Part shown: positions 23,997-44,793 of the stretch, piece by piece
Position numbering within the stretch: position 1 is the first letter of the stretch
How the letters are laid out: every line of letters starts with the position of its first letter
Assembly (NCBI GenBank): GCA_964418945.1
Contig: CAYQNR010000004.1
Span: forward strand, 2,156 to 66,155
Direction: 5' to 3'
Length of the DNA: 64,000 nucleotides
DNA from: an uncultured Desulfobacteraceae bacterium
Lineage (GTDB): Bacteria; Desulfobacterota; DSM-4660; Desulfatiglandales; HGW-15
Notes under the pieces: model-generated
What the model saw: only the letters and a program-made list of their open reading frames with translations
What the model was told of the DNA's origin: nothing
The model's database searches: none
Position numbers and translations under genes: made by a program

Positions 23997-24054
23997 AGAA
24001 TAGTCAATCACAGGTCCCTTAAATCAAGAAAGAAAAATCATTCGATGCTCTGGA

Positions 24055-24400
24055 ATGGCCCTGCCAAAAAGCGACGGGATGGAGGCACTTGCCTCCATGC
24101 CTGGCGAGGCGAAGCTGTGCGAAGACTGCTGTTCTCATATTCCCAATAGGGGAAAACAGATGGTCAGCTATTATGGCTGTTATAATAATGTGAGTCGCGG
24201 AAAACGGAAAAATCAGGACCAGGACAAACTAATCCCCTCCAGCTTGGAACCGGATGAATCATTAAGAAAACCCTTAAGAACCGGTCAAGGCTGATTGAAA
24301 AGATCTAGGAAGAGTACCCGCTGACTTGCCTAAAACGTTCTTCTGCCAAATCTTCCGGTCTTGCTCATAATGCCCAGCACATTATTTTACTTTGATCTGT
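24055..24400 (+). pseudogene. IS91-family transposase C-terminal remnant
   Basis: ...HIPNRGKQMVSYYGCYNNVSRGKRK resembles the IS91 C-terminal region. Homology continues in another frame with an internal stop (RLIEKI*EEYPLTCLK). Confidence 0.5.
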
Positions 24401-24738
24401 GATGGATCCGATATCTTAATAGACCCGCCGCCGTTTGGATTTTCATGGATTTCCCCGGTGACACAAATCGTCTTACCTACATACAAATCCTCATCCAAAT
24501 CACCTTTAATCGAATCATCCACTTCTATTCCCACAGCGCTCGGCTCCATTACCGCTGCTCCCATACCAAGAATTGTCATTCCTGAATAGGGCAAAGTGTC
24601 AACGATTTTTCCGCAAACGGTTGCCTTTTCACCCATGTGGTTCGCAGCTTCATCCCAATTGTATTCTGCAGCAAATGAAACAAAGGCTGAGAAGAAAACA
24701 AAAACAAACACCAAGCCAAGACACAATACTTTTTTCAT
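24382..24738 (-). CDS. Small exported protein of unknown function
   Basis: Signal peptide MKKVLCLGLVFVFVFFSAFVSFA. AAGGAGG lies upstream of ATG 24738. Confidence 0.6.
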   Translation of the reverse strand: MKKVLCLGLVFVFVFFSAFVSFAAEYNWDEAANHMGEKATVCGKIVDTLPYSGMTILGMGAAVMEPSAVGIEVDDSIKGDLDEDLYVGKTICVTGEIHENPNGGGSIKISDPSQIKVK

Positions 24739-24890
24739 AATAACCATACCTCCTTAATTAGATTAATGGTTCATCGTGCAATCAACACACCACTGCACAT
24801 CTCTGAATACAACCCCAAACAACACCTTCTGTCCAAAACGGTGGGGATTAAGACACATTAAAGATATAAAAATCGAACTACAAACTGATC

Positions 24891-26990
24891 CTATATCTGA
24901 TTACCAATTCTCCAGCCTGCGGCGATTGCATCAGGTATTATCGCGGGATCATCGCAGTCACCGATTGCGTAGAGCTCTGGCACCTTTCCTTGAAGTTCTT
25001 CATATAAGCCGACATTTCGCGCAAATCCAATAGGTATGATATGATCTGCTGCTAATGTTTTTTCCTCACCTTCTTTAGTGATTATTTTTAATCCTTCTTT
25101 ATTGATTTCGACCAGTTTAACTCCTGCATATGTTTTAACACCCTTTTTCCTGAACCATATTAACAGACGATTTGTAAATTCGGGGATAAGCATGTCTCCA
25201 AGCTCATCACTGGGTTCAACTATGGTTACCTTTCGCCTTCTTTTAGCCATGAATTCACCTAACTCACATCCCTGAATGGCGCCACCTATTATAACAACCC
25301 TTTTCCCGATAGGCTTAAAGGGATTCCATCCAGCGGGAGTCCATATTTTAGTAAACCAATTTGCGAAACTCGGACTAAAGAATCTGAGAACAAATTTTAC
25401 TAACCTATACAGAGTAGTTGTTTTAATGACATTAGGGCTGTCAAGTCCCGGTATATCCGGATACTTTGGCACAGCTCCCAATGCAACAACCACGGCATCC
25501 GGTTTCTCTGCGAGTATTTTAGACGAATCAGGCATTTTTCTCAGATGGACCTTAACTCCAAGCTTTTTAAGCTGGGTCTTAAACCACTTTACGATTTCTG
25601 GAAGGTCTTCGAGCTCAGTACCTTTTATAGCTGCTGCACATGGTAAATTTCCACCCAGGTATGGTTCCATTTCATACAATGTCACATCATGGCCTCTGAT
25701 GGCACTGATTCTGGCTGTCTGCATCCCAGCGGGCCCGCCGCCGATCACTACTACTTTTTTCTTTTTGTCTGCTTTGTCCACTTCGTACTTATCAGTGCCG
25801 AAAGACGCATTTATACGGCATTCCCTAGGTTCATTATATATTTTGGCGCAGTTAACGCAATGGGTACACGGCACTATATCTTCAAGACGGCCTTCTCTTG
25901 CCTTGTTTGCATACTGCGGATCCGCAAACACTCGCCTGTTAAAACCGATAATGTCAGCCTGGCCTTTTTGAAGGACCATTTCCGCGGTATCAGCGGTGAA
26001 TCCGCCTGTAGTCATAATGGTTGGCTTGGTGACAGTATTTTTAATTACTGCGGAAGACGGTACGGTGATCAGATCCCCATAATTGCTAAAGTCCATCTCC
26101 TCTGGTAGATCTTCCTTGGGAATGCAAAGTTCAGGGTACCAGAGTACATTATGAAGGTAAGAACCCTGGTGATGCCCAACCAGATGATTCCTGACCTGCA
26201 AAGAATCAACACCGATTGATTCGTATATCTTCGCAATCTCAATACCTTCTTCCCAGGTTATTCCCTGATCGCCTAAACCAAATTCATAGGCGTTCATAAG
26301 TACCTGGACCGGCCAGTCTTCTCCACACCGTTTCTTGATCTCTTTTACGGTGTTAACAACGAATCTCATCCTATTTTCCCACGACTGTGGGCCGTATTCA
26401 TCATCACGCCTGTTCCAGTAACGTGAAATAAAGGTATGGAAAAGATGATCAGCACCGGCGTTTATTTCAACACCATCAAAACCGGCCTTTTGGACTCGTA
26501 CCGCACAGCTGGCGAAATGGTCGACCAACCATTCTATCTCTTCAACGCTTAATGCCCTTGGCGGCTCTTCTTCATGAACGTCATATTCCGATGTGAAATG
26601 AACAGCTGAAGAGGCAACACGATCTGCTATGAATTGATATTCCTTCCCCCACGGGCCGCGGTGATAGAATTGAACAAATGCCTTACAATCGTGTTTATGA
26701 ATAGCTGCAGTTAACTCAGAGATATTGTCTATATACATGTCATTATCAACGCGAAACCTGCGATCGCCTTCTTCGAGCAACGGCCATTCCATGGCAGGTG
26801 TTTCAACTATAATAAGACCGACACCGCCTTTAGCTACAGCTTCATAGAATGCCAAGGCGAGGCTGCCGACACGCTTCTCTCCTGATTCGAAAAAATATGT
26901 CTGTGCTGCCGTTTTAACAAACCTGTTTTTTAATTGAACCTTTCCTATATGATATGGTGAAAAAAGTTTTTCGTATTTATTCCTTGCCAC
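24891..26990 (-). CDS. OYE-like FMN / Fe-S / FAD-NAD(P) oxidoreductase, paralogue 2
   Basis: OYE N-terminal domain, CTHCVNCAKIYNEPREC cluster, and GGGPAG fold. GTG start with GGAGGA upstream. Confidence 0.88.
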   Translation of the reverse strand: MARNKYEKLFSPYHIGKVQLKNRFVKTAAQTYFFESGEKRVGSLALAFYEAVAKGGVGLIIVETPAMEWPLLEEGDRRFRVDNDMYIDNISELTAAIHKHDCKAFVQFYHRGPWGKEYQFIADRVASSAVHFTSEYDVHEEEPPRALSVEEIEWLVDHFASCAVRVQKAGFDGVEINAGADHLFHTFISRYWNRRDDEYGPQSWENRMRFVVNTVKEIKKRCGEDWPVQVLMNAYEFGLGDQGITWEEGIEIAKIYESIGVDSLQVRNHLVGHHQGSYLHNVLWYPELCIPKEDLPEEMDFSNYGDLITVPSSAVIKNTVTKPTIMTTGGFTADTAEMVLQKGQADIIGFNRRVFADPQYANKAREGRLEDIVPCTHCVNCAKIYNEPRECRINASFGTDKYEVDKADKKKKVVVIGGGPAGMQTARISAIRGHDVTLYEMEPYLGGNLPCAAAIKGTELEDLPEIVKWFKTQLKKLGVKVHLRKMPDSSKILAEKPDAVVVALGAVPKYPDIPGLDSPNVIKTTTLYRLVKFVLRFFSPSFANWFTKIWTPAGWNPFKPIGKRVVIIGGAIQGCELGEFMAKRRRKVTIVEPSDELGDMLIPEFTNRLLIWFRKKGVKTYAGVKLVEINKEGLKIITKEGEEKTLAADHIIPIGFARNVGLYEELQGKVPELYAIGDCDDPAIIPDAIAAGWRIGNQI

Positions 26991-27384
26991 TGTTATCCTC
27001 CGATATAATTTCAGTTCATTTATCTAAAAATTAGATTACTTTTAAGTACTTTTTACAATTGAATACCTGCTGACACCGTACCCGAATTGAAATGCTCTGG
27101 CACGTTGAGATATTATATAGAAATTAAGCGGTCCGTGATTATTTTACAACGCCTCGGTTTAGAAAACGCCGGTCAACTAAACTCAATGATATGCTGTATG
27201 GAAAAAACTAATATCATCCAGATTCAATATTTAGCTGTCATAAATAGGAATAACAAAGAGATAAGTCAATAGAAAATCCATGATTTTGTCCATTTTTTTG
27301 TGACATTTCATAAGCAGATACAAGATTCCCATATCCCCGCCTCTGCCCGGTACATTTAGCTGGTTTTAAAGGACTTCTTTTTGA

Positions 27385-27510
27385 GGTTAATCCGTTTAAT
27401 GAGTACGCTAGTTAATGATATCTAAGTATTTTGCCCTATATGGGCCATTAAGCTGTTCATAATAAGGTTTAATATTTTACTTCTTTACGTAGTCCTTAAC
27501 CGAATGGACC
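27385..27510. mobile_element. MITE-like element, copy B (minimal 126-bp form)
   Basis: Carries the same TIR family (GGTTAATCCGTTTAATGAGTACG ... CGTAGTCCTTAACCGAATGGACC). The internal sequence equals the ends of copy C without the nested insert. Confidence 0.7.
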
Positions 27511-27734
27511 TTTTTTATATTCATAAATGATATCCATATGAAGAAGAATTATACCTAATTTCATTCAATAAGGCGTTATAACATGTCACTACCATAAATA
27601 TTGTATAACTGATTCTATTAGATGTGGATGTATAAATAATATAAAGAAAATAGGCAAGAAAAATCAATTTTTGTCACGCAAGAATAACGGTACTGTATCA
27701 TAAGTGTTCACTAAGCACTTCCTTAAAAAACGAC

Positions 27735-27790
27735 TTTACAATTAAACATTCATTCACTATGATGTTGCCGGTTGATGCGGTCCTCATCAA
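27735..27790 (+). promoter_or_regulatory. Promoter plus diverged leader box (copy P7)
   Basis: TTTACA, 17-nt spacer, TATGAT, 8 nt, then TTGATGCGGTCCTCATCAA, which is itself an inverted repeat. Confidence 0.45.
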
Positions 27791-28063
27791 TTGGTTTATA
27801 TATCTAACATAATTAGGTTCTAAAGATGATCTGTATTGAAAGAACACTAAAATTGATGAGCTGATTGATGAGTCCTAAATTAAGACAACACAGCTAACTG
27901 ATCCTTCACAGATTACCGAACGTTGATGAAAATCCATTGTAATCAAACCGAGGATTAGCCCGCAGAGTCTAAAATATGCCTGTTCTTTGATTACGTTCGG
28001 TATAAAAGAGTTTCAGGGAGTTCAAGACGGAAAGGGAGAATAATCATCAACTCCGATGAAGTA

Positions 28064-28984
28064 ATGCAAAAGAGAATTACTCGAAGGGATTTTATTAAGA
28101 AAGCCGCTGTTGCCGGAGCCGTTGTAACAACTTCAAAGGTACTTGCGGATCCAGCCCAGACAAAAAATATACGAGGAGGTGATCAGATGGCGATTTCAAC
28201 AGCAACATTCAACAAGTATGGCACCGATCTCGAGAAAATGTTGCTATTGAGCACATACCCCATTGCGATAAAGATGCTTGAGACCGAATCCCAAATCCCC
28301 AAGGGCGCCATACGGCCCAAAAAAGACCGGGGCGAGCATTATGCCATGTGCCAGGCCTTTGCCCTTGCCCGCCGCCAGGGAATGACATTGGCCATGTTCA
28401 TCGAAGATCATTGGTGCTTTGAACCCATAATCTCCTACGGGCTTGTGGAAACGCCTCAGGATTATCTGGATGGATTCACCAATTCGTTTTTCATGGCCGA
28501 TAAAGAAGCGGCAGCGAAACATGCGCGCGGAATGACCCGCCTGCCCGTCGGGAAGTATGCCGGAATGGTTTTGGGCCCACTGAAAACGGCGAATTTTGTT
28601 CCTGACCTCACGATGATTTATTCCAATACCGCACAGCTGCGACATTTACTCCTTTCTTTGAGATACCTCAATGGGACCCAGGTGACTTCAACCATTGATC
28701 CCATAGGATCCTGTGTCCATTCGGTCGTTCCCTCACTTTTAAATGATGAATGCCACATTACGGTGCCTGATCCCGGTGATTTCGAGCGCGCCGGGGCTGG
28801 GGATGATGAAATGATTCTCACGGTTCCTACCAGAAGATTGAAGGAGCTGATGGATGGGGTATATCATTTTGACAAAGCCATGGCATTTAGAAACTTTAAC
28901 TATTCAATACAACCGGACTTCCAGCAGCCTCCGTTCTATGAGGAATATTTTAGAAGGTGGGGATTGGATGCGCCTAAGAAGTAG
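28064..28984 (+). CDS. DUF169 family protein with in-frame Tat-like N-terminal extension
   Basis: RITRRDFIKKAAVAGAVVTTSKVLA lies at the N-terminus. An alternative ATG 28187 has a strong AGGAGG 7 nt upstream. The body is homologous to the fragment at 2-265. Confidence 0.8.
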   Translation: MQKRITRRDFIKKAAVAGAVVTTSKVLADPAQTKNIRGGDQMAISTATFNKYGTDLEKMLLLSTYPIAIKMLETESQIPKGAIRPKKDRGEHYAMCQAFALARRQGMTLAMFIEDHWCFEPIISYGLVETPQDYLDGFTNSFFMADKEAAAKHARGMTRLPVGKYAGMVLGPLKTANFVPDLTMIYSNTAQLRHLLLSLRYLNGTQVTSTIDPIGSCVHSVVPSLLNDECHITVPDPGDFERAGAGDDEMILTVPTRRLKELMDGVYHFDKAMAFRNFNYSIQPDFQQPPFYEEYFRRWGLDAPKK

Positions 28985-29022
28985 GAGTTAAAGGCTTAGT
29001 AGCATGTAACGAAGTTTTGAAA

Positions 29023-30255
29023 TTAGTAACGTCCGTATTCACGGGTAAAATCTATCATCGCCTTCAGGTTTTCGGGCCTGACTTCATCTACAACCGATGC
29101 GGGTCCTACAATCAGTCCGCCGTCCTTTCCAACGACATCGATCAGCCATTTGCAGTATTTCTTTACTCCCTCCACATCGCTTGCCTGCAGCAGCGAGGAC
29201 GGTACGTTCCCGGATATGCAGACGTGTCCTCCCAGAACTTCCTTCGCTTTAACTATATCCGTGTGGTCCATGCGGGCGATCACTTTACCTTTGGGCAGTT
29301 CTCGAAGGTATTCCAGGCGTTGGGTATAGTCGCCCTCAAAAAAGATTTCAGGCGTGTACCCGGCATCCACCAGCGCGTGGACTAATTTAAGGAGGTCGGG
29401 CCAGTAGAATTTTTTAAACTGATCCAGCGACATAAAGCCGTCTGCGCCTCGATGCAGGGCCATGAAGGTGGTCGTGAAACCGTCGGGTTTCGGAGCGGCT
29501 GCGACGGCTTTGAGGGTTTGATCGGAGATTCTTTCAATCGCGGCCAGCAGTTTGTCTGGTCGTCGGTACATGTCGAGCATGGAACCCCGCATACCTCGCA
29601 ATAAGTCGGAAACCATATCAAATGGCACCGGCCCTCCGACCATGGTCATCCGACACGGGAAACCGTTTTCATTTAAAGCGTCAAACATTTCCTGGTTCTG
29701 TCGCATCCATTCCACCGCCTCATGTGAAATCGAAGATAGCGTTTTGAGCATCTCGGCAAATTCCGGCAAGGCAAAAAGATGCAAGGGAAGCATAAAATGC
29801 ATGGAATGAAGCGGGGGCAAAGCTGATAGCGGCGCCAGTAAGCCGTACATTCTCGGCAAAAGGGTCCGAATGGTGAAATCCGACTGGTCATTTATAAAAT
29901 GCTCGTATTCTTCCGCTTTCATGTACTCGCCTTCAACAAACTGGTGCGAACGGTTCTTTCCCACTCCGTGCCCGGGCCAGACGAAGAATTTTTGATCCAG
30001 TGTCTCAAGGACCCTGCCGGATTCATTGGGGAAGAATTCGCACCGGTCCGGTTGAAAATAGTGTGCCGTTTTCAGATAGGCTTCTTTCCACTTGGGGAAG
30101 TCGTAATATGCATCACTATAAGTAATACCTGTAAACCTAGCCGGTAGGTAGCTTAAATGAACCGAGGTCGGAACCCTGTCCGGTATCCTTAGTTGAACGG
30201 CATCGATATACCTTTTTTCTCTTTCGCGATACAGTTGTTCCGTAACCTTGTCCAT
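29023..30255 (-). CDS. Uroporphyrinogen-decarboxylase (URO-D) family protein (MtaA/methyltransferase-like), paralogue 1
   Basis: 410 aa, URO-D-fold-like, homologous to 45462-46805. Confidence 0.75.
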   Translation of the reverse strand: MDKVTEQLYREREKRYIDAVQLRIPDRVPTSVHLSYLPARFTGITYSDAYYDFPKWKEAYLKTAHYFQPDRCEFFPNESGRVLETLDQKFFVWPGHGVGKNRSHQFVEGEYMKAEEYEHFINDQSDFTIRTLLPRMYGLLAPLSALPPLHSMHFMLPLHLFALPEFAEMLKTLSSISHEAVEWMRQNQEMFDALNENGFPCRMTMVGGPVPFDMVSDLLRGMRGSMLDMYRRPDKLLAAIERISDQTLKAVAAAPKPDGFTTTFMALHRGADGFMSLDQFKKFYWPDLLKLVHALVDAGYTPEIFFEGDYTQRLEYLRELPKGKVIARMDHTDIVKAKEVLGGHVCISGNVPSSLLQASDVEGVKKYCKWLIDVVGKDGGLIVGPASVVDEVRPENLKAMIDFTREYGRY

Positions 30256-30285
30256 TCTTACCTCTCCAGATGTCTTTTTAAGTGG

Positions 30286-32349
30286 TCACCCAAGCCTGCC
30301 TTTATTTTGGAGTGTATCAGCCACTTTCTTCAATCCCATGGCTTCAAGTGTGCTTCTTTTCGGCCAGCCGCTATCACTGTTCCAACCTTCAAAATCATAG
30401 AATCTGGTTTTCCATTCCTCAAACCTATTCCTATCCAGGACCCTGCCTACACAAGGGCTGTAGCTCCAGGCACCGTTCTCATAGACCGGCAGGTAATAGG
30501 GCTCTTCCGTAGGAACATTGTAGACATATCCAGCCAATACTTCCATATCGCGATGTCTCCCCTGCATCACCCATATGGCCCTGTCCAGGTTCCATATCTT
30601 GCGTCCGATCTCGATCCCCTCGACAAAACTCAAATTCTTTCCGGTAACCGCATTAAAAAACCTGGATTCCCCTTCCGGTGTTGGCCCGGACTTATCAGGA
30701 CTATTGGGGGTAAAAAAACGAGGCCAGACCCAATCACAGAAGAGGATAGACTGTATCCAGAATCTGGTGTAGTGCCTATGCCAGGCTATTGTTTTAACCC
30801 TATGGTCCGAATAGATTCCTGTGGGGCCTTCACTGTAGTCGAACATAAAGGGATCGCCTGCATATGGAGCCACACCCGAAGATAATTTCTCTACTGCTTC
30901 TTCAGCAGAAAGCACAGGATCCATATCTGCGCTTTTTGTCCAAGTTGGCATATGGTGTATGGCCATATTGAAGCTGTGCTCATTAATATCTCTTTCTCCC
31001 AGGATGGAACCATAGCTCCACTCCACCTCGAGCCTTGGGTCATAATGCTCAAAATATCCCCAGTTCGGCAGGTTCAGGAGTCCGCTTTCACTATCCTCCT
31101 TATATCGTCCCCATGTGTCTGCCGCTCTGGCCACGCCTCCGCTCAGGGCATCGCCAATCCCCTCCCTGTTGGCGATTTTCTTGACAAGTGCATGAATGAA
31201 TTCAACCCTGCCGAACAACTCCATTGGCAGGTTACTTTCAATCTTCTTTCCGGGCCCCAGTATTCCCTGTTTATAGAGTGCCTGGATATATGAAAGCATC
31301 GGACGCATTTGAAAGGCATTTATGCCGTAATACTGAACCAGGTCGCAAGCAATCTCCTTATCCTTTCGAGTCCCCTGAAGAGCCATAGCCGCCCAGATGG
31401 TGTCTTCACAGCTCAACTCATTACTGACACCGCCGGCCAATCGCATGCGGCAGGCCTTAGGGCATCCGGCACAGGCCTGGGCGCGTGCCGGTTCAATTGG
31501 GAACTGCTTGTTCACGAAGTTATCGTCCCCAGGATTATCGTTGACGGGTGAAAAAACAAATACATCCGGAGGTTTCTCCATCCTGGGATTGTCAACGTCA
31601 TACTCGAATTGCCGATACCACAGTCGGGCTTCCATAAGTGCATTTGGATTGGCTATGGGTAAACTTCCAGTACCGATCACGCTTATAGCCTTAAGCTTCT
31701 TTGATCCGAAAACTGCTCCAAAACCACCCTGCCCCGCGCCATTTCCCGCATCATGAATCAAACAGGCAATCCTTACTTGATTCTCCCCCGCAGGTCCAAT
31801 GCACAGTACTGCGGGTTTCTGGGTCGTATAGTGATCCCCGATATCCAGCCATTCGCCGGACTTCGCGCCAGCTGTCACCCGCCTCCAGATTTCCTCCTGC
31901 GTCTCCATGACATCCAGACCCCACAGCGACCCGGCGGGTTCAATCTTTGCTTTATCATCAATGATATTGATCCACACAGGCTCATCGGATGCCCCTTCAA
32001 CGACAACTCCATCCCATCCGGCATATTTAAGCTGGGCTGAAAAGCGTCCTCCAAAATTGCTGCGGGTAAACCATTCCACAGGGTATCCCTGAGGCCCTAA
32101 TCCTTGCACCTCGCATCGTCCCGCAGCGGAAGGCACAATTACACCGGAAAAAGGACTTGCGATCACAGTAACGACATTTCGGGGATCAAGGGCGTCAAAG
32201 GGCAACTGATCACCGATCAGGTCCCAGAATATGGCGGAACCGATTCCGTGACCACCGCCATACTCTTCGTATTGTTCAGTCTCCAGGGTACTGATTGATT
32301 TTTTGTTTAAGTCTACCCGTAAAATCTTTCCGGTATATCCATATGCCAT
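30286..32349 (-). CDS. Aldehyde:ferredoxin oxidoreductase (AOR) family tungsto/molybdo-pterin enzyme
   Basis: Typical AOR N-terminus MAYGYTGKILRVDLNKK...GGGHGIG and C-terminus ...GWNSDSGWPKRSTLEAMGL. Confidence 0.88.
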   Translation of the reverse strand: MAYGYTGKILRVDLNKKSISTLETEQYEEYGGGHGIGSAIFWDLIGDQLPFDALDPRNVVTVIASPFSGVIVPSAAGRCEVQGLGPQGYPVEWFTRSNFGGRFSAQLKYAGWDGVVVEGASDEPVWINIIDDKAKIEPAGSLWGLDVMETQEEIWRRVTAGAKSGEWLDIGDHYTTQKPAVLCIGPAGENQVRIACLIHDAGNGAGQGGFGAVFGSKKLKAISVIGTGSLPIANPNALMEARLWYRQFEYDVDNPRMEKPPDVFVFSPVNDNPGDDNFVNKQFPIEPARAQACAGCPKACRMRLAGGVSNELSCEDTIWAAMALQGTRKDKEIACDLVQYYGINAFQMRPMLSYIQALYKQGILGPGKKIESNLPMELFGRVEFIHALVKKIANREGIGDALSGGVARAADTWGRYKEDSESGLLNLPNWGYFEHYDPRLEVEWSYGSILGERDINEHSFNMAIHHMPTWTKSADMDPVLSAEEAVEKLSSGVAPYAGDPFMFDYSEGPTGIYSDHRVKTIAWHRHYTRFWIQSILFCDWVWPRFFTPNSPDKSGPTPEGESRFFNAVTGKNLSFVEGIEIGRKIWNLDRAIWVMQGRHRDMEVLAGYVYNVPTEEPYYLPVYENGAWSYSPCVGRVLDRNRFEEWKTRFYDFEGWNSDSGWPKRSTLEAMGLKKVADTLQNKGRLG

Positions 32350-32416
32350 TGATTAATACTCTCCTTTGGGGAACGTTGGCATCTTGAATCACGGCGCAAC
32401 TCAAGCTAATGAAGCT

Positions 32417-32599
32417 CCCCGCCGCAAGCGGCGGGGTTTCAAGCGGAATTCCGCCGAAACCACCCGCCTTTCCATCCTCCATAGCCCGTCCTCCGCAGTG
32501 GCCTGCTACGGAGGATGGACAGGCTACTGCGGAGGACGGGCGCCCAGTGAGCTACGGCGCGGTTCGCTACGCCATTCATCCCTGTGGCAAGCCACAGGG
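32417..32599. repeat. REP-like array of perfect GC-rich hairpins
   Basis: CCCCGCCGC-aa-GCGGCGGGG; CCCGTCCTCCGCAG ... CTGCGGAGGACGGG; CCCTGTGGC-aa-GCCACAGGG. Confidence 0.7.
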
Positions 32600-32702
32600 T
32601 ATTCTGGCGAAGGCGAATAAACGCCTATTCTTTTACACCTTCCACTTCGGATTTCAGATCCTTGTTTTCTTGAATCAGCTTGTGGACATATTTGGGTTTT
32701 GC

Positions 32703-34217
32703 CTAGTTAAGGTTGTCCAAGGCTTGGTGGTAGACATTGGTCATAACATGCCCCCCTAAGTACAGACCTACTTCACCCACAACAGTATCCAGGGATCCGC
32801 ACTGCGCATCTCCAAGATTCCGGCTTTTCTCTCCGTATGTATCCTCGATATGCCAGGACCGGATAACCTTGCCGTCAAATTCATCCACTACAATCTTAAA
32901 AAGGCCTCTGGGTCCGTCATAAGAATTGGTTTTCGAATCAAGGGTGATGGCTTCCGCGTTTTCGATGGCCAGACCGGTCATCATATAACAAAGCGGTCAG
33001 ATATAGGCGGTCTGAAGTATGAATCTTGTATCTTCACTCCAGGGATTTCGCAATTCCATCTTTCTTACATCCTCATATATCAGCAGGTCCACTTTACCAC
33101 CGTAGAAGGAGCTGACCTCATTCATCTGCGACACCGGCACAAAATCTCCCGCTTCGTTCATAAGCTTCATGGGACCCGGTCCGAAGGGCATATCAAATTT
33201 TGTATTGATCTGTACACGTATGTTTTCGTAATCCAGAGACAGGGTCGGCCGTATGATGGTGCTATGCTCCAGGATATGCTTTTGGTTCCTGTAAATATCC
33301 AAGGTCAGAGGCCCCAATGTCTTCTCAGCAAGCACATTGCCTTTCGAATCCAGCAGATTGATCCCGACCGTTCCGAGTTCGGGATCGACCGACAAGACCT
33401 TGACTCGGTATTTACCGGCCTGTAAGGTCTGGCCGGCGGCCACATCGTTGGCAACTATCGGTTTATCATAACTGGTTTTGAACCAGATCATGTCCAGGGC
33501 TCCAGCCTCTTTGATCTTTATTCCCTGTGGAGTTACACTGTCCACAACAACAAAGAATGTTGCGGATGCGTCAAAAGGATCACCGAAGAACTGCAGAGGC
33601 GGGGGAGTGATCATTCCTTCACCCTGCAGATAGCCGTAGGCGATAGCATTTCTTGACCTGGCATATCCTGAGGGAATAACAACGGACAAATCCCATGTCC
33701 TATAACCGTTGGCAAAAACAAATTGAAAAGCGGCCGACCTTACATTCAAAAAGCCTTCCATGGAAAAAGTATTGGCAAGAGCAATCGTGCCCTCTTCACA
33801 TAAAGGTACGGGTCGCTTCCCTTGTGCTACGATAAAGTCTTTCTTAATGGCCATGGCTTCCTTCTTCCCCAGCCAAATGGCTTCCTTACCGGCGATAATA
33901 AGTGGTTCTCCGTTCAGATTAGAAAATCCCTCTCCTCCAAAGGTGAAATAGATTAAACCGCCCGGAGGAATTCTAATCTTCCCATCTTCGATGCTACTCT
34001 GACGGATCATAAATCCTTCCGTAATCCCTCTTTCAATGCCATGGCGGTTGGGCAATAACTTTGGAGCCAACAGCTCGGGCATCTCCTCCGGCGCAACGAA
34101 AGATGCATCTGGAGAAGGTAGTTTATAGTGAGCGTTTTCTTCCGCATTTCCTGGGAGCGTGAATGCCAGGAGAAAAACTACGGACAAGACAATATGCAAT
34201 AGTCCTCTCTTTTCCAT
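32703..34217 (-). CDS. Exported protein, candidate selenoprotein (in-frame TGA at 32997-32999; motif U-P-L-C)
   Basis: ORFs 32997-34253 and 32703-32984 share a frame and are separated by TGA plus 4 codons. ATG 32984 has no SD. AAGGAGG precedes ATG 34217, and a signal peptide is present. Confidence 0.55.
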
Positions 34218-34685: not shown

Positions 34686-36632
34686 CTATTTTCTTCGGTA
34701 AACACCGGTATAGTCTTTATTGTGAGCTTCATACTGCTGTTGCATATCGCCCCAGAATGTAATAGGAAGCTCGCCGATTTTTACCTTATCGTTTTCCAGT
34801 TTGACGGTCAGGTACTTGTTCCACTCCGGCGGATCGACCGCAGGGTAATCGATCCTGTGCAGATTCAAAGGGATGCTGCTGGCCTTACGCGCCCTGGAAG
34901 CATGAATGATGATCTTCGCATAATTCAGAAGACTGATGTCCTCAAGACTGCGCATCAGCTTATGGGGATCAAGGGCATACAGGGTAGGCACGGTCTCTTC
35001 CTCAATCTTCTGCAAAGCCTCGAGCCCTATCTGGAAAAGCGATTCGGTCTTGAATTCACTGACATAATACTGCATCACCCTGGAAATACCGGCGTGCAGC
35101 TCTTTCCATTCAATACCGCTGCTACGCCTCACCGGTGCATAAACTCGCGATTTTTCAACTTCAATCTGGTCACGGGACATTTTGGATTCGCTAATTTCCT
35201 TGGCATAAGCGGCGGCTTTTCGGCCCGCGTACCGGCCGGTTGCGGCAGCATAACTATGATCCTCGGGAGAAAACATCTGGGTCCCGGCGGCGTACAGCCC
35301 GTCCAGAGATGTTTTCAGGTTCCAGTCCACCAGCAGGCCTCCGCCATAACCGGCTTCCCGCCACTGGGGCAGGCTTTGTCCTTCGATAAACTTGTAGCCC
35401 TGAAGCAGGTCGCGGCCGGGATCGAAGCCAGCCTGGTTGTAAGTGTCAATAATGACCCTGGTGGTGGATTCTTCACCAAGCATCAATCTCCAAGTGACGT
35501 TTCTCTCCACTTCCGGCATGGAAGGAAAATCGGCGTAAAAAGGCAGGGAGTATTCGCCTTTCATAATCCCTTCATGGATTTTGGCGGTTACTTCGGGAGT
35601 CGGCACCATTGCGCCGGCATCTTCCCAACCCTGTATGGGATAGGGAAGCCTCTTTCCGTTGGCGTCCACGATAGGAACATTCTCGTAGCTGGCGTCCCCG
35701 CCCCCGGTATACCACTTATGTTTCAACCCGGTGGCGATCATAATAACTCCGGTGGCTTCCATGTTGGTCAGCTCCGCTCCGGCCCTCCAGGCCATTACCG
35801 TTCCGTCGCCGGAAACCGTGCGGGGAATCATGTTGGAATATCCTCCATGCTCCATACTCATCAACCATATGGATCCGGCCCCGGCAGTGGCTAAAATGGT
35901 GGCCTTGGATCTAAAAATCATGAATTCGCCGGTACGGTTGTTCAGGCCGGTAGCCCCGATCACCCGGGCGCCCTGGATCCCGTTCTCGGTGAGCAGGCCG
36001 GTCCCCATCACCCGGTCGAAGATCTTAACCCCCAGGCGCTCGCATTCCTTTTTAAGAGCGGGTTTAAAGGTACTCCCCCAAATCCGTATCACCACATTGT
36101 TCCGTTTGTCCGGGGGATTAAAATTGGGTTCTCCCATTCTGGGATCTGGCAAATAGCTGTGAATGGTGCCGTAACGCGGGGAAATCATGAACTTGGTCTT
36201 ATCGTCTCGTTCTTCGGCACCGACGTATTCGTCGTCCGTATCCCTTATTTTGCCTCCCATCTGCTCCATCTCCAGCAAAGTGTCAAAATTCTCCCGGCAC
36301 TGGATCTGGATGCCAATACCGTTGCTATAGGGCCGGTCGGCCATATGCCGCGCCCAGTCGTCCGGAGTAACCCTGGACAGAGGATTGGCCGGAGCATCGC
36401 ACCAGTGGTCGCATCCCGGCCCACCGGCACCGCTTCTGACGGTATCGCCCTTTTCCACTAAAGCCACATTCAGCCCTTGCCTGGCCGCGCTGATCGCCGC
36501 CCAGCATCCGGCGATACCTCCTCCTATCACCAAGACATCGGTCTCGATTTCCTGTTCCTCTTCAAAACGGATAGGATAGGGCCAACTGGGAGGCCGACCT
36601 TCCTCCTTTAAGTAATCATGCCAAGTAGTCAT
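34686..36632 (-). CDS. FAD-dependent oxidoreductase, AprA / fumarate-reductase flavoprotein superfamily
   Basis: DVLVIGGGIAGCWAA dinucleotide fold and AprA/SdhA-like length and pattern. It is paired with the ferredoxin. Confidence 0.82.
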   Translation of the reverse strand: MTTWHDYLKEEGRPPSWPYPIRFEEEQEIETDVLVIGGGIAGCWAAISAARQGLNVALVEKGDTVRSGAGGPGCDHWCDAPANPLSRVTPDDWARHMADRPYSNGIGIQIQCRENFDTLLEMEQMGGKIRDTDDEYVGAEERDDKTKFMISPRYGTIHSYLPDPRMGEPNFNPPDKRNNVVIRIWGSTFKPALKKECERLGVKIFDRVMGTGLLTENGIQGARVIGATGLNNRTGEFMIFRSKATILATAGAGSIWLMSMEHGGYSNMIPRTVSGDGTVMAWRAGAELTNMEATGVIMIATGLKHKWYTGGGDASYENVPIVDANGKRLPYPIQGWEDAGAMVPTPEVTAKIHEGIMKGEYSLPFYADFPSMPEVERNVTWRLMLGEESTTRVIIDTYNQAGFDPGRDLLQGYKFIEGQSLPQWREAGYGGGLLVDWNLKTSLDGLYAAGTQMFSPEDHSYAAATGRYAGRKAAAYAKEISESKMSRDQIEVEKSRVYAPVRRSSGIEWKELHAGISRVMQYYVSEFKTESLFQIGLEALQKIEEETVPTLYALDPHKLMRSLEDISLLNYAKIIIHASRARKASSIPLNLHRIDYPAVDPPEWNKYLTVKLENDKVKIGELPITFWGDMQQQYEAHNKDYTGVYRRK

Positions 36633-38793: not shown

Positions 38794-38863
38794 TATTTTC
38801 TCTTCATTTACATTTACTTTTTCAATTTCAAATTTAGGATAAACATGAAAGGGGGCCAAGCAA

Positions 38864-41518
38864 GTGAAAACCGTAACCTTAACTGTGAATGGAGTAAAAA
38901 GGAAGGTTGATGCCAGCCCGGACCTGGTGTTGCTCGACCTGCTGCGCGAAGAACTCGACCTTACCGGGACCAAGCAGTCCTGTGACCGCAAAGGCCAGTG
39001 CGGTGCCTGTACGGTAATCGTCGATGGCAAAGCAACGCGTTCCTGTTTGAAGAAAGTAGTCGACCTGGAGGGAGCGGATGTCATCACTGTAGAGGGCCTG
39101 GGCACGCCTGATAATCCCCACCCCGTCCAGGAAGCCTTTGTCCTGACAGGCGCTATCCAGTGCGGCTACTGCACGCCGGGCATGATTATGGCCACCAAAG
39201 CCCTGCTCGATCAGAATCCCGATCCTGACACAGCTGCGATCAAGAAAGCGCTGGCACACAATCTTTGCCGCTGTACCGGCTACGTAAAAATAATCGATGC
39301 CATAAAGTTAGCCGGTAAATTCCTGCGGGGGGAGACCACACCGGCGAAGGTCCGTGCCAATATCGATAAAGATAAGATGATTGGTGAATCCCATCCCCGT
39401 CCTTCTTCCATGCTTAAAGCCTGCGGCCTGGCTAAGTTCGGCGGAGACTATAAAATGGATAACATGCTGGAAATAGCCGCGGTGCACAGCACTGAATTCC
39501 ATGCCATTATCAAGTCCATCGACACTTCTGCAGCAAAGGAGATGCCGGGTATGGTCGGCGTGATGACGGCGGAAGATATTAAGGGCACCAACCGCCTCCC
39601 CTTTATCGCCCTAGACCAGCCCGTGCTCTGTGAGGACAAGGTAAGGGCCTATGGCGACCCGCTGGCTATTGTCGCTGCGGAGACCAGGGAACAGGCACGA
39701 GCCGCTGCCGCCGCCGTAAAGGTTACTTACGAAAAACTACCGGTGATGAAAACACCGGAAGAAGCCCTGGCACCGGCCGCGGTGCAGATTCACCCCCATT
39801 CGCCCAACCTCTGTTTCCAGCAGCCCCAAATAAAGGGCGACGCTGACAAAGCGCTCAAAGACGCGCACGGGGTAATCGAAGCAGACTTTTCCACGCAAAT
39901 GAACCACCAGTCACCCCTGGAACCGGAAGCCTGCTTCTGTTATTTAGACGGTAATGAACTGGTGGTTATCGGGCGGAGCATCATGATTCACGCCCATGCC
40001 GGCATGATTCAGGGAGCCGTCGGCGCGGAAAAGGTTCGCTATATCGAGCCCTACTCCGGGGGCCAGTTCGGTATTAAAGCCAACATCTCATCGGAAGGCA
40101 TTGCCGCCGCGGCCGCCATGCATTTTAAGCGTCCCATCCGCTATATACCCAGCCTGGCGGAATCGTTCCTTATTACATCCAAACGCCATCCCTTCTCCAT
40201 GAAGACAAAACTGGCCGCTGATGCAAAAGGGAACCTTACCGCTTACTTTAATGATTTTATCATGAACAAAGGCGCCTATTTCCTGCTTGGCCCCATTATG
40301 GCGGGGCGCGCCCTGCACATGCTGAACGGAGCGTACAATATACCTAACATTTCCGCTTTAGTTAAACTGGTTTATACCAATAACGGAAGCGGCGGTGCTG
40401 CCCGGGGAGCCGGACCGCCCCAGGTCATGTTCGCACTGGAATCACTGATGGATATGATGGCGGAGAAGCTGGGCATGGACCCGCTGGAATTCCGCAAGAT
40501 GAATGCCCTCAAACCGGGTCAGACACGCTCCACGGGTGCTCCTATAGACCAGACCTCCTTCCCGGAGCTGTGCGATGATATCAGACCGCACTACGAACGC
40601 GCTAAGAAGGATGCCGCTGCCTTCAATAAAAAGGGCGGCAAGATAAAACGTGGCGTGGGTATCGCCTGCATGTCCTTCGGCATTGCCGAAGCCGGCGACC
40701 GTGCCGATAATGCCGTGGAGATAAATCCTGATGACACTGTTACCATTTATGCCGCCATCGCCGACCCCGGTGAAGGCAACGACTCTATGCTTTCGCAACT
40801 GGCAGCCCAGGTTCTCGGTCTGCCTCTGGAAAAGATAAAACTCTATACTCGCGACACGGATAAGACTGTAGCGGCGGGGCCCTCTGCCGGCAGTCGGCAG
40901 ACCTATATGGGCGGCGGGGCCCTGGTCAACGGACTTGAAAAAATGGCTAAGGCCATGGAAGAAGCCGGCTCCAAGACCTACTCCGGACTCAAGAAGGCCG
41001 GCAAACCCACCCGCTATGAGGGCACGAAGCAAATTGCGGGTAAAGACGAGTTCGATCCCAAGACCGGGCAAACCGACTCTTTTGACTCCCAGGTACACAA
41101 CATCCAAATGGCAGAGGTTGAAGTTGATACAGAGACAGGCAAGACCAAAGTTCTAAAAATGACCACTGCCGTTGACGCTGGCCCCATTATCCACCCGCAG
41201 AACCTGGAAGGTCAGTTGGAAGGCGGTATGGACCAGGGTATTGGCTATGCTTTAAGGGAAGAATTCGTTCTTGGCGAGACCAAGGACTGGATAACATTCA
41301 AATTCCCCACCATTGCAGATTCCTTCGAGGTGGAGTTCGTCAAACGTGAGACTCCCCGCATCAGAGGCACACTAGGCTCTACCGGCATCGGCGAGATGAC
41401 GATGGTTTCTACCGCGCCAGCAGTTACAAACGCTATCTATAACGCCTGCGGCGCCAGGATTCACCACCTACCCGCCACTCCGGATAAAGTAAAGGCTGCA
41501 ATAGCCGCTAAAACATAA
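38864..41518 (+). CDS. Molybdopterin aldehyde oxidoreductase, [2Fe-2S]x2 + Moco fusion (Desulfovibrio gigas Mop-type architecture)
   Basis: N-terminal CoxS-like 2Fe-2S motifs (CDRKGQCGACTV; CGYCTPG; CRCTGY) run continuously into a CoxL/XDH-like Moco domain. No FAD domain is present. GTG start. Confidence 0.9.
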   Translation: MKTVTLTVNGVKRKVDASPDLVLLDLLREELDLTGTKQSCDRKGQCGACTVIVDGKATRSCLKKVVDLEGADVITVEGLGTPDNPHPVQEAFVLTGAIQCGYCTPGMIMATKALLDQNPDPDTAAIKKALAHNLCRCTGYVKIIDAIKLAGKFLRGETTPAKVRANIDKDKMIGESHPRPSSMLKACGLAKFGGDYKMDNMLEIAAVHSTEFHAIIKSIDTSAAKEMPGMVGVMTAEDIKGTNRLPFIALDQPVLCEDKVRAYGDPLAIVAAETREQARAAAAAVKVTYEKLPVMKTPEEALAPAAVQIHPHSPNLCFQQPQIKGDADKALKDAHGVIEADFSTQMNHQSPLEPEACFCYLDGNELVVIGRSIMIHAHAGMIQGAVGAEKVRYIEPYSGGQFGIKANISSEGIAAAAAMHFKRPIRYIPSLAESFLITSKRHPFSMKTKLAADAKGNLTAYFNDFIMNKGAYFLLGPIMAGRALHMLNGAYNIPNISALVKLVYTNNGSGGAARGAGPPQVMFALESLMDMMAEKLGMDPLEFRKMNALKPGQTRSTGAPIDQTSFPELCDDIRPHYERAKKDAAAFNKKGGKIKRGVGIACMSFGIAEAGDRADNAVEINPDDTVTIYAAIADPGEGNDSMLSQLAAQVLGLPLEKIKLYTRDTDKTVAAGPSAGSRQTYMGGGALVNGLEKMAKAMEEAGSKTYSGLKKAGKPTRYEGTKQIAGKDEFDPKTGQTDSFDSQVHNIQMAEVEVDTETGKTKVLKMTTAVDAGPIIHPQNLEGQLEGGMDQGIGYALREEFVLGETKDWITFKFPTIADSFEVEFVKRETPRIRGTLGSTGIGEMTMVSTAPAVTNAIYNACGARIHHLPATPDKVKAAIAAKT

Positions 41519-41529
41519 ACAAAAACAAA

Positions 41530-41564
41530 GAATCGGCAGGCTCGGAAAAAGGGCTTGCCGATTC
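41530..41564. terminator. Hairpin between convergent genes
   Basis: GAATCGGCA ... TGCCGATTC stem between the Mop stop and the AKR stop. Confidence 0.5.
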
Positions 41565-41569
41565 AGCCT

Positions 41570-42697
41570 CTATCTTTTATTCAATATCTCCCATAATTTC
41601 TTAAGCCAGTCGAGAATAGCAATCCCCCTACCGCAGGCATTCACACAAATACCGCATTCATTGCAGTTATCAATACGGTGTTTTTCCTTATGGTAAATAG
41701 ACCGTGCTGTCTCGATGTCATCATACATAATGGCATCATTGTAGAGTTCAAAGAGGCGCGGCACATCAATGCCCTGGGGGCAGGGCATGCAGCCGTAGCA
41801 GGTGGTACAGGGGATGGGCTTCATCTTCCGGTAAGCATCCCTGACCTGGCTGATGAGCACCTCCTCTAGTATGGTGAGGCTATCTGGTCCAGCGGTATCA
41901 GCCAGGGCCATGTTTTCCACTACCTGTTCCATGGTGTTCATATTACAGACAACGGTAGCTATTTGGGGGTGACTCCAGACCCAGCGTAATCCCCACTCCG
42001 CCAGCGAACGCTTTGGGGAAGCGGTTGCCCATACCTTGGCTACTGATTCCGACGGCGCTTTGGTCAGCCTTCCTCCAAGAAGAGGCTCGGCAGCCACCAC
42101 CGCCAGCCCTTTCTCAGCAGCACGTCTGAGTCCGCTGACACCCGGCATGCGGTCTGCGTCCATATAGCTGTACTGAAACTGGCCAACGGCCCAGTTATCG
42201 TAAGAATCCAGTATCTCCCTGAGAATATGAAAGTGGTCGTGGAAGGAGAACCCCACATGGCCAATTCGCCCACTACTCACGGCTGCCTCTGCCCAGTCTA
42301 GTGCATCCAGTTCCTTTAATTTTGGCCAGGTCTCCCGGTTTAGGCCCCCAAAAAGATAAAAATCAATCGTGTCCGTCCCAAGCCATCCTAGTTGTTCGTT
42401 TAGATAACGGTCAAAGTCCCGTGAGGAATGGATAAAGAGAGACGGCAGACTGGCAGTAATTTTTATTTTCTGCCGGTAGCCGTCTTGAATTGCCCGGCTG
42501 ATTAGACGGGTCAGACGCTCATGAGGATAACCCAAGTTCAGATAATTGACACCATGGTCAATGGCAAAACGGATAATCTTGATGGATCCGGCTTCATTGA
42601 TGTCTTTCGGGTCCTCGTCGGCTAACGGCAACCGCATAACACCAAGGCCTAATACCGATACTTCCCAATCCAGCTTGCCGAACCTGCGGTATTTTAT
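41570..42697 (-). CDS. Aldo/keto reductase with C-terminal 2x[4Fe-4S]-type Cys motifs
   Basis: AKR fold plus CTTCYGCMPCP and CNECGICVNAC. The conserved N-terminus (I)KYRRFGKLDWEVSVLGLGV lies upstream of the first ATG. The frame opens at ATA 42697, directly after a stop, with GGGAGGA upstream. Confidence 0.8.
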   Translation of the reverse strand: MKYRRFGKLDWEVSVLGLGVMRLPLADEDPKDINEAGSIKIIRFAIDHGVNYLNLGYPHERLTRLISRAIQDGYRQKIKITASLPSLFIHSSRDFDRYLNEQLGWLGTDTIDFYLFGGLNRETWPKLKELDALDWAEAAVSSGRIGHVGFSFHDHFHILREILDSYDNWAVGQFQYSYMDADRMPGVSGLRRAAEKGLAVVAAEPLLGGRLTKAPSESVAKVWATASPKRSLAEWGLRWVWSHPQIATVVCNMNTMEQVVENMALADTAGPDSLTILEEVLISQVRDAYRKMKPIPCTTCYGCMPCPQGIDVPRLFELYNDAIMYDDIETARSIYHKEKHRIDNCNECGICVNACGRGIAILDWLKKLWEILNKR

Positions 42698-42735
42698 TTA
42701 TGTCCTCCCTTTAGTTACATCTTGAATCAAAGTGG

Positions 42736-43704
42736 TTATTCTTCTTCTTGCACCCAGGGAGAATCGTGCTCACCGCTGAGGCAGCAGACAATAAAGGCGT
42801 AGGGCTTATCCATCCACCTGGTGATGAGGGGGAGATGGGGAAAGCCGGAAGGGCAGACGGCGACAGTAGGCGTGTTGAAGACATGCCTTTCGTATTCCTT
42901 GCCCATAGCCAGCTCCTGCTCACACCCCAGAAAATTCAGGTCATCCGGGTCAAGGCCGAGAAAGACCAGTATTTCCTCGGAAGGATGGTAGTGGGCTTCG
43001 CCGCCGCGGTGCCATATACCTGAGCCGGTGTAAAATCCCCAGGTGAAATTGATTTCAAACCCCTCCAGGTCTTTACCGTAGAGCCAGACAAGTTGGTCAG
43101 CGTTCCCCGGCCCCAGAAGGCCCACCTGGCTCATATCCATTTCAGAATCAGGATGCTCCTTCTTGAACTCCGCCAGCAGACGCTCATCCTTGGCAATAAT
43201 TGACATCCTGACCGGTTCGAAGCCGGGACCAAGCGGTTTAACCAGGTGCCCATACTTGGAACCCGTTGTTTTAGCCTCTTCCGGGAGCGGTTCAGCCTTG
43301 TAGTCCGCGGCCAGACCGATATGGTAATGGGCAATAGGTTTATCTACTTTTCTCACCGTAACCGGGCCGTGCGGTGTCCCTTTGGGGACGATGATTACCG
43401 AAGGTACGTTAAAGATATGCTCCTCGCGTTCCTCGCCCAGTTCTACCGATATTTCGGCACCCAGATAGGTGATATCGGTGTTATCGGTGCCGGCAAAAAC
43501 CAGGCACTCGTCGTAGGGGTGAACCAGCGCCCCTTTAGCGGGGTGAAGCTTGCTGGCTTTTTTAACAAACCCGTACGAGAAATTGGCGTTGAACCCTTCC
43601 ATATCCTTGCCTTCCATCCATATCCACGGCTCGGGATATAAACCTTCCGGCGGTTTTTGGACCAGTAGAGATTTTATCAGATGGGCATACTTTTTCTCGG
43701 CCAT
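42736..43704 (-). CDS. Bicupin protein, uncharacterised family (paralogue 2)
   Basis: Carries the same signature as 19547-20461. It is a tandem duplicate of 43744-44718. Confidence 0.75.
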   Translation of the reverse strand: MAEKKYAHLIKSLLVQKPPEGLYPEPWIWMEGKDMEGFNANFSYGFVKKASKLHPAKGALVHPYDECLVFAGTDNTDITYLGAEISVELGEEREEHIFNVPSVIIVPKGTPHGPVTVRKVDKPIAHYHIGLAADYKAEPLPEEAKTTGSKYGHLVKPLGPGFEPVRMSIIAKDERLLAEFKKEHPDSEMDMSQVGLLGPGNADQLVWLYGKDLEGFEINFTWGFYTGSGIWHRGGEAHYHPSEEILVFLGLDPDDLNFLGCEQELAMGKEYERHVFNTPTVAVCPSGFPHLPLITRWMDKPYAFIVCCLSGEHDSPWVQEEE

Positions 43705-44785: not shown

Positions 44786-44793
44786 GCCTGAAT

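Follow-up and report, generated by a model that had tools for sequence, protein, structure and literature searches.

An inventory published in 2026 lists 119 families of prokaryotic selenoproteins, nearly every one of them tied to a Pfam or NCBIfam model (PMC13188914 Table 1). The thioredoxin-fold selenoproteins with a UxxC motif (U being selenocysteine, Sec), which include Trx, Grx, DsbA-like and DsbG-like proteins and a thiol:disulfide interchange protein, have Cys-x-x-Cys homologues, and some of them are exported (PMC13188914 Table 1). The SAO system of anaerobes comprises signal-peptide selenoproteins (SaoB, SaoX and SaoC) with database entries truncated at the UGA codon and a reading frame that resumes beyond it (Haft & Gwadz, 2022, bioRxiv 10.1101/2022.07.06.499078). 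In the published model of the bacterial selenocysteine insertion sequence (bSECIS), the apical loop has 3–9 nt, with G in the first two loop positions, the stem has 4–16 bp, and the loop lies 16–37 nt from the UGA (PMC13188914 Fig. 2A). The gene considered here lies on the minus strand (34217 to 32703) of a 64,000-nt stretch of DNA from an uncultured Desulfobacteraceae bacterium (assembly GCA_964418945.1, contig CAYQNR010000004.1, positions 2,156 to 66,155), hereafter referred to as the window. We consider, with a probability of about 0.9, that this gene encodes a single polypeptide of 504 residues in which the UGA at 32999-32997 is decoded as selenocysteine. Like the SAO selenoproteins, it would be an exported selenoprotein of an anaerobe with public records broken at the UGA, but the SAO proteins have other folds and motifs (CU, UxP; ABC substrate-binding proteins) and a conserved nine-gene neighbourhood, whereas the family described here has no conserved neighbourhood.

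On the minus strand, an open reading frame (ORF) of 406 codons runs from ATG 34217 to position 33000 and is followed by TGA (32999-32997), past which the same frame continues (CCG CTT TGT TAT ATG ATG ACC GGT CTG GCC ATC) for 97 codons, up to a final TAG (32705-32703). The complete coding sequence of the proposed selenoprotein (32703..34217, minus strand) has 504 codons with one in-frame UGA, at residue 407 (32997..32999). Its product begins MEKRGLLHIVLSVVFLLAFTLPGNA-EENA and reads ...QTAYI-U-PLC-YMMTGLAIENAEAITLD... across the UGA (...QTAYI-U-PLC-YMMTGLAIEN), and the peptide that would span residue 407 is ...QTAYI-U-PLCYMMTGLAIENAEAITLDSK. An earlier note on this DNA had described the in-frame TGA with a continuing frame, a Shine-Dalgarno sequence AAGGAGG 6 nt before ATG 34217 and no such sequence at ATG 32984, the start of a 93-aa ORF beyond the stop. 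Direct translation of the strand bears out the first of these, the AAGGAGG is found at 34230-34224, and no purine-rich stretch lies upstream of ATG 32984. The same note had also given the upstream part as a 418-aa ORF with a signal peptide; the signal-peptide-like start at 34217 stands, whereas the longest-ORF start, ATG 34253, is superseded, because homologues and the Shine-Dalgarno site place the true start at ATG 34217, with 406 residues before the U. In the protein homologue set, the 406-aa products begin at the Met of this codon. The predicted Sec-type (general secretory) signal peptide, MEKRGLLHIVLSVVFLLAFTLPGNA (34143..34217), was recognized by inspection of the sequence and is probably cleaved after GNA. 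Mature residues 26-406 (33000..34142) would form N-terminal and middle beta-rich domains, as judged from 41 homologues and an AlphaFold2 model of one of them. Independent JGI and Logan assemblies contain the same 406-aa product on 23 contigs, with the 93-aa ORF called separately each time, and this identical split of the gene on 23 contigs excludes a sequencing error. TGA is an ordinary stop in the window, where it ends 12 of 38 long ORFs, and a sense meaning of TGA in this host was rejected on that count. An in-frame TGA with U-x-x-C and a long continuation occurs at only two sites of the window, in this gene and in a neighbour that encodes a UGSC-domain protein.

The U position was compared across relatives. 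With the fused sequence as query, 41 homologues were found among 5.8 billion proteins, all called 'hypothetical protein' where they are named and none carrying a Pfam domain; a profile search to widen the family returned the same set of matches. Nearly all of them are 383-411 aa long, and their alignments span about 75-81% of the query. P0040 (479 aa) is the exception: it is uninterrupted and has a Cys in place of the U (...NVSYV-C-PWC-HMMIGLVIENSREIVLD...), whereas the other homologues with inspected sequences (9 of 9) stop at the aligned ...QT[AH]Y[ILT]. Matches in several stretches of P0056, P0085 and P0089 were discarded as spurious, P0056 being an Ig-repeat protein. A scan of one genome per species yielded 53 loci, in many of which the tblastn alignments cross the stop, and every single internal stop in these loci is TGA, never TAA or TAG. 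At the 50 loci that are informative for the column aligned with U, TGA is found in 27 and Cys in 23, and the second Cys of the [U/C]-x-x-C motif (U-P-L-C in the window, 32988..32999) is kept in 49 of the 50 aligned sequences. Nine further metagenome loci of the window's clade have the same TGA. Downstream, the pattern ENxExIxLD...GP.G.F[KR]IV[IV]D.FDG....WH.E[DT] is conserved throughout the alignment. The Sec forms come from metagenome-assembled genomes (MAGs) labelled Acidobacteriota, Deltaproteobacteria/Desulfobacteraceae, Anaerolineae, Bacillota and Desulfovibrionaceae (Mailhella, Bilophila, Desulfovibrio), and the Cys forms from Syntrophaceae/Smithella, Desulfarculaceae, Tectomicrobia and Nitrospinales, and also from Mailhella. 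Three pairs of Sec and Cys paralogues were each found within one MAG (L048/L037, L043/L045 and L053/L040). The earlier note had asked whether its 418-aa and 93-aa parts occur elsewhere as one polypeptide with Cys exactly at the U; they do, in P0040 and in 23 genome loci, and all Sec-form loci have TGA as the stop.

Two records deserve separate mention. Locus L045, a Cys form in a Mailhella MAG (CAJJMX01), has a TGA at the codon of the invariant Trp455 (TGG to TGA), about 150 nt past its CAEC motif; this is not a Sec site, and is probably either a nonsense mutation or an assembly error. P0046, a 140-aa protein from the exhaustive protein search described below, was deposited with Trp at the Sec position (RPDT-W-ATC), from which it follows that TGA was translated as Trp by some pipeline, another route by which this family is mis-annotated.

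The stretch beyond the UGA behaves as the end of the same protein. The 97 codons that follow the Sec codon (32706..32996) would complete a C-terminal beta domain, and they hold the residues N420, D427, G435, P436, F440, D445, W455, H456, E458, N467, L468 and D477, invariant in the alignment of 50 sequences. When 1.84 billion representatives were searched exhaustively with HMMER, the 97-aa part alone had 49 homologues. Some are short fragments starting just past the UxxC, and the others are long proteins that carry the segment near their C-terminus. The short fragments start there because gene callers restart at the MM codons. The 93-aa segment, as the earlier note had it, thus has homologues and no standing as an independent gene, being fused in the Cys forms. 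Within the window's clade, the median pairwise ratio of non-synonymous to synonymous substitution rates (dN/dS) is 0.156 upstream of the UGA and 0.122 downstream, or 0.103 downstream when the hairpin codons are omitted, and 2-11 stops interrupt the two alternative frames there. The region past the TGA is under purifying selection.

A hairpin directly follows the UGA, as it does in Escherichia coli fdhF, the archetype of a selenoprotein gene with a bSECIS inside the ORF. The two genes are alike in having an in-frame UGA, a hairpin in the coding region directly after it and a small loop starting with GG(U); the loop sequence in fdhF is GGUC(U). They differ in that the protein studied here is unrelated to formate dehydrogenase and that its stem is weak, with an A.C mismatch. 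The bSECIS-like hairpin, UGAUGACC-GGUCU-GGCCAUCG (32963..32983), spans nt 17-37 counted from the U of UGA, with the A.C mismatch at 22/32, and its apical loop GGUCU (32971..32975), which starts 21 nt past the UGA, is invariant in all sequences of the clade. The earlier note had drawn it as GAUG(A)CC-GGUCU-GG(C)CAUC with GGUC at nt 25-28 from the U, and a TGA-N21-GGTCT match at 32971-32999 agrees with this. Against the published bSECIS model, the loop has 5 nt and starts with GG, the spacing is 21 nt, and loop, stem and spacing all fall within the described ranges. This hairpin inside the coding sequence would, by analogy with other bacterial selenoprotein genes, direct the decoding of the UGA by recruiting SelB with Sec-tRNA(Sec).

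Its conservation in nucleotides is marked. In 20 unique sequences of the clade, AUGAUG-NCC-GGU-CUG-GNC-AUC-GAA is nearly invariant, whereas the codons on either side, for Pro, Leu/Gln, Cys, Tyr and Ala, are free to vary. Synonymous change was expressed as the fraction of pairs with different codons among pairs sharing the amino acid, in windows of six codons; this value is 0.02 for codons +7 to +12, as against a gene mean of 0.478, and is the lowest of 282 windows, the next lowest non-overlapping one having 0.319. Synonymous sites are frozen over these codons only, exactly at the predicted hairpin, and the hairpin with its GGUCU loop, which the earlier note had wanted checked, is kept at the nucleotide level within the clade. 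In the alignment of the eight-position stem, 93% of cells are paired, compared with 5-49% when the partner strand is slid by 1-3 nt. The stem of the window copy has 7 pairs and the one A.C mismatch, and it is fully paired in L007-L011. Pair 22/32 alternates between A.C, U.G, G-C and G.U through substitutions that change residues (T/S/A and A/G/V). The variants of the clade fold at -6.9 to -12.9 kcal/mol, and those in which positions 22 and 32 pair properly reach -10.2 to -12.9 kcal/mol (z -3.1 to -3.7). The more distant Sec forms L028 and L029 have GCAYG-AGGU-CRUGC at nt 21-34, with a compensatory C-G/U-A change. An Rfam scan of the window returned no match to a SECIS or any other RNA family. 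The motif TGA-N21-GGTCT occurs seven times in the window, on both strands, against 1.54 expected, and none of 100 shuffles reaches seven; this excess may come from codon usage. The other six sites (130-158, 42127-42155, 43044-43072, 46427-46455, 55240-55268 and 61355-61383) include no read-through candidate, and the one at 46427-46455 lies inside an uninterrupted minus-strand ORF (45462-46805) with no in-frame stop.

Several observations weigh against the proposed decoding and function. The isolated hairpin of the window has a minimum free energy (MFE) of -5.7 kcal/mol (z -1.3), where the energy criterion for a bSECIS is -7.5 kcal/mol or lower, a shortfall caused by the A.C mismatch. An extended 51-nt fold that adds CCGC/GCGG reaches -11.7 kcal/mol, which lies beyond that threshold but is no better than shuffles, and folding in a 66-nt context does not exceed shuffles either (z -0.76). 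Covariation is thin, as five of the eight pairs are invariant and the observed score is reached by 20 of 500 shuffles; strong covariation was thus not borne out for this mostly invariant stem. Given this thin covariation and a folding energy in the window no better than that of shuffles, the RNA evidence is mainly one of conservation and not of thermodynamics. No comparable GGU-loop hairpin was recognized in the Desulfovibrionaceae Sec clade. The Sec machinery is not visible in the 64-kb window, which has no tRNA gene and no sel gene (selA, selB, selC, selD) among its annotated ORFs; the one indirect hint of such machinery is the neighbouring UGSC gene, with its match to a (seleno)protein model. 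Export is not universal in the family: a sub-clade of Sec forms (L008-L011 and L063, proteins P0026-P0038) has no signal peptide, starts with METNAHYKLP behind an in-frame stop five codons upstream, and is therefore presumably cytoplasmic. On the functional side, the homologues carry no family annotation, and clustering of all ORFs in the flanks of the loci returned clade-specific neighbours only, with no general partner.

Three other accounts of the UGA have to be set against decoding as selenocysteine. If the UGA were a real stop, a 406-aa protein would be followed by a separately initiated 93-aa protein (from ATG 32984), the two products perhaps associating. The gene caller of every assembly annotates the locus in this way, two ATG codons lie 4-5 codons past the UGA, and many of the short fragments start at that Met; such fragments are, however, the expected output of a gene caller at a Sec codon, ATG 32984 lacks a Shine-Dalgarno sequence, and the P-x-C between UGA and ATG is conserved (C410 in 49 of 50 sequences), unlike a non-coding spacer. 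As the Cys forms are single and uninterrupted and the stop is always TGA, never TAA or TAG, this two-protein arrangement is very improbable. Decay of a gene in which a Cys codon (TGT/TGC) has mutated to TGA is scarcely credible: a change from TGY to TGA needs only one base, and the window copy has a second lesion-like change (TGG to TAG at a C-terminal Trp), and L045 shows TGG to TGA at Trp455, but the same TGA recurs in 27 genome and 9 metagenome loci from several phyla, selection downstream is intact (dN/dS 0.12), and decay gives no explanation for synonymous sites frozen over the hairpin.

Reading of the UGA with a residue other than selenocysteine, by near-cognate insertion of Trp or Cys or by a lineage-specific reassignment, is highly unlikely. 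It could draw on the Trp given to P0046 at its UGA codon and on the Sec machinery not being found in the 64-kb window. The 12 of 38 long ORFs that end in TGA speak against reassignment, however, the aligned residue is always Cys, the signature of a Sec/Cys pair, and the GGUCU-loop hairpin is conserved at bSECIS spacing. The UGSC neighbour, moreover, has an in-frame TGA at the site where it matches a known (seleno)protein family. Decoding as selenocysteine thus remains the reading that we prefer for the 504-residue product.

The product matches no family that was compared with it. The window protein has no Pfam or NCBIfam match at E <= 0.01, and 11 diverse relatives have no NCBIfam match at E <= 0.1 and no meaningful Pfam match at E <= 10. 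None of the 119 catalogued families fits it when compared through Pfam and NCBIfam models, the cd and PTHR libraries being left out, and nothing similar was found among the deep-Sep families or in BSepDB. It does not match NF041046, the model of the UGSC family, either. The gene therefore apparently represents an uncatalogued selenoprotein family with Sec and Cys versions in anaerobes of several phyla.

The Sec-type signal peptide predicted at its start makes the periplasm or cell envelope the probable destination of the product, and the earlier note's reading of its N-terminus was upheld by inspection; basic, hydrophobic N-termini with a small-x-small (AxA-type) site are found in most family members. 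The structure was modelled with AlphaFold2 on the natural Cys homologue P0040, from a 44-sequence alignment, and this model stands in for the window protein. It has a mean predicted local distance difference test (pLDDT) score of 84 and a predicted template modelling (pTM) score of 0.83, and consists almost entirely of beta strand, with Cys 380 and Cys 383 in the turn between strands 372-379 and 386-393. Across the 50 sequences, the invariant polar and motif residues of the C-terminal domain are D396, R398, U/C407, C410, N420, D427, D445, H456, E458, N467 and D477, and the model would place the U-x-x-C pair in a beta-hairpin turn of this domain. Judged from the sequences, such an invariant polar pattern would fit an active or ligand-binding site better than a lattice protein. 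The thioredoxin-fold UxxC oxidoreductases share the motif with this family, but the latter appears to be all-beta, with the motif in a beta-hairpin turn of a multi-domain protein of about 480 residues, and neither Pfam, NCBIfam nor the PDB fold search gave it a thioredoxin-type match. The long Cys forms, ORFs of 950-1130 codons, are tandem duplications of the whole module in which the motif is found in the second copy only, as CGHC, which is also the motif of protein disulfide isomerase. These long forms occur at loci L012-L015, L017-L020, L023-L025, L030-L032, L034 and L038, from Syntrophaceae, Desulfarculaceae, Tectomicrobia and related MAGs.

We infer from this arrangement that the protein is an extracytoplasmic enzyme and not purely structural, and that its selenol and thiol form a site that is redox-active or binds chalcogen or metal. 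The alternative is a structural cell-surface protein of the S-layer type, in which the U-x-x-C would be only a stabilising selenylsulfide or a metal clamp. A Foldseek comparison of the P0040 model with the PDB gave a single significant match, to the DUF1608 domain of the Methanosarcina acetivorans S-layer protein MA0829 (3u2g, E 5.9e-05, probability 1.00), and Pfam S_layer_N was matched faintly by one of 12 members (E 0.0058, below the cutoff). MA0829 is an exported beta-sandwich protein, as members of the new family appear to be, and the tandem duplications of the long Cys forms recall MA0829 (3u2g/3u2h), itself a tandem of DUF1608; the signal peptides of most members also suit a surface role. 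The superposition on 3u2g is poor, however (TM-scores 0.20 and 0.29, root-mean-square deviation 16.6 A), DUF1608 was matched by none of the 12 members, the family profile had no match at E <= 10 among all PDB sequences, and there is no similarity at the sequence level between the archaeal MA0829 and this bacterial family. MA0829 is not known to contain Sec or a CxxC motif, and a search for literature linking selenoproteins with S-layers or DUF1608 found nothing relevant. The dense cluster of invariant polar residues around the motif looks catalytic or ligand-binding, and a sub-clade lacks the signal peptide. Sec insertion is inefficient, and would be ill-suited to a bulk lattice protein. A purely structural role therefore seems rather unlikely, and the DUF1608 match, which depends on a modelled structure, may serve as a clue to the fold but not as a sign of family membership. 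Combining this lead with the enzymatic role preferred here, it may tentatively be proposed that the family is a new class of extracytoplasmic selenoenzymes, in which an S-layer-like (DUF1608-type) beta-sandwich scaffold, in place of a thioredoxin fold, would carry a U-x-x-C turn and an invariant cluster of Asp, His, Glu and Asn residues. Together these would make up a catalytic site for species of sulfur, selenium or metal at the envelope of anaerobic cells.

The gene is one of a series of co-directional genes on the minus strand. Upstream lie the UGSC-domain fusion with its own in-frame UGA (38375-36672), a Sdh/Frd/AprA-like flavoprotein (36632-34686) and a small 4Fe-4S protein (34732-34346), and downstream, beyond a spacer of 353 nt, come a gene of the aldehyde:ferredoxin-oxidoreductase family (32349-30286) and another that is URO-D/MtaA-like (30255-29023). 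If it starts at ATG 34732, the 4Fe-4S gene shares 47 nt (34686-34732) with the 3' end of the flavoprotein gene; other assemblies have it as a 128-aa or 98-aa version. The N-terminal part of the UGSC neighbour (GMGH-U-SLC) matches NF041046 'UGSC family (seleno)protein' with an E-value of 1.3e-13, below the curated cutoff, and its C-terminal region of about 370 aa is a fused region without a family match. The two genes, 3 kb apart, are alike in strand, in-frame UGA, U-x-x-C motif, signal-peptide-like start and GGUC hairpin loop, but their products have no sequence relationship. In the neighbour, the GGUC is at nt 21-24 after the UGA, in the loop of a GUGGCC/GGCCAU stem; the shared loop that the earlier note had pointed out is thus present, whereas the offset is 4 nt and not the two codons that it gave.

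The same note had argued that two such coincidences within one operon are unlikely to arise by chance, an argument that did not survive comparison with other genomes. Searched with tblastn against the 53 related loci, the neighbours of the window gave 0-1 matches each, and on these counts we rejected a conserved operon that would join the gene to the UGSC fusion, the flavoprotein and the ferredoxin. The flavoprotein-ferredoxin-selenoprotein arrangement is found only on near-identical contigs (L054, L067-L072), as is the recurrence of the UGSC gene, and the UGSC pair co-occurs in none of the 53 genome loci. The two selenoprotein genes are neighbours, not conserved partners. Elsewhere in the family, the long Cys clade has as neighbours a molybdenum-bis(pyranopterin guanine dinucleotide) oxidoreductase exported by the twin-arginine translocation (Tat) pathway, a DmsB-type Fe-S subunit, an arylsulfotransferase and the membrane protein YeiH, a 'putative sulfate exporter'. 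Subunits of tripartite ATP-independent periplasmic (TRAP) transporters (DctP/DctM) lie near several Sec loci, and FAD_binding_2 flavoproteins near four loci. These flanking genes, mostly periplasmic or membrane, hint faintly at sulfur chemistry and define no system. The wider surroundings in the window (21000-30300 and 38800-52300) are rich in anaerobic redox and radical enzymes, with two FMN/FAD reductases of the old yellow enzyme (OYE) type (22065-23996 and 24891-26990), a DUF169 protein with a Tat signal (28064-28984), a xanthine-dehydrogenase-family molybdenum enzyme (38864-41518), an aldo-keto reductase with an Fe-S domain (41570-42637), two URO-D/MtaA-like genes (29023-30255, already mentioned, and 45462-46805) and a glycyl-radical enzyme (49807-52224).

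The 3' end of the gene has a feature of its own. At the position of the final TAG (32705-32703), the other members of the clade read ...NLN-W-T[KN]PKYVNKLIQENKRLKS..., with an invariant Trp (TGG), and the 25 codons past the TAG still read like the C-terminal helix of the clade; the alignment thus identifies a change from TGG to TAG followed by a readable remnant of the ancestral helix (AKPKYVHKLIQENKDLKSEVEGVKE, then TAG 32627-32625; 32625..32705, minus strand). The TAG recurs in L055, and L054 has a frameshift here. The terminal TAG is either a recent nonsense change that removes the C-terminal helix or a codon that is itself read through. The spacer of 353 nt that separates the gene from the aldehyde:ferredoxin-oxidoreductase-family gene (32350-32700, minus strand) has an MFE of -157.1 kcal/mol (z -6.57), with none of 100 shuffles as stable, and holds a long, nearly perfect GC-rich hairpin (CCCGUCCUCCGCAGUAGCCUG...CAGGCCACUGCGGAGGACGGG). 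This structure could be a terminator, a repeat of the repetitive extragenic palindromic (REP) type or a regulatory RNA.

The range of the family extends over Acidobacteriota, Desulfobacterota (including the gut genera Mailhella and Bilophila), Anaerolineae and Bacillota. In the public records examined its genes are split or truncated and labelled 'hypothetical protein', and recognition of the Sec codon corrects the annotation of dozens of genomes and metagenomes. It would add a family to the prokaryotic selenoproteome, which stands at 119 families according to the 2026 review (PMC13188914). Most known selenoproteins are thioredoxin-fold or metal-cofactor enzymes, and an exported, all-beta U-x-x-C protein of about 480 residues would widen the structural range in which selenocysteine is used. 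The presence of Sec and Cys paralogues in the same genomes of gut Desulfovibrionaceae provides a natural system in which the contribution of selenocysteine could be assessed.

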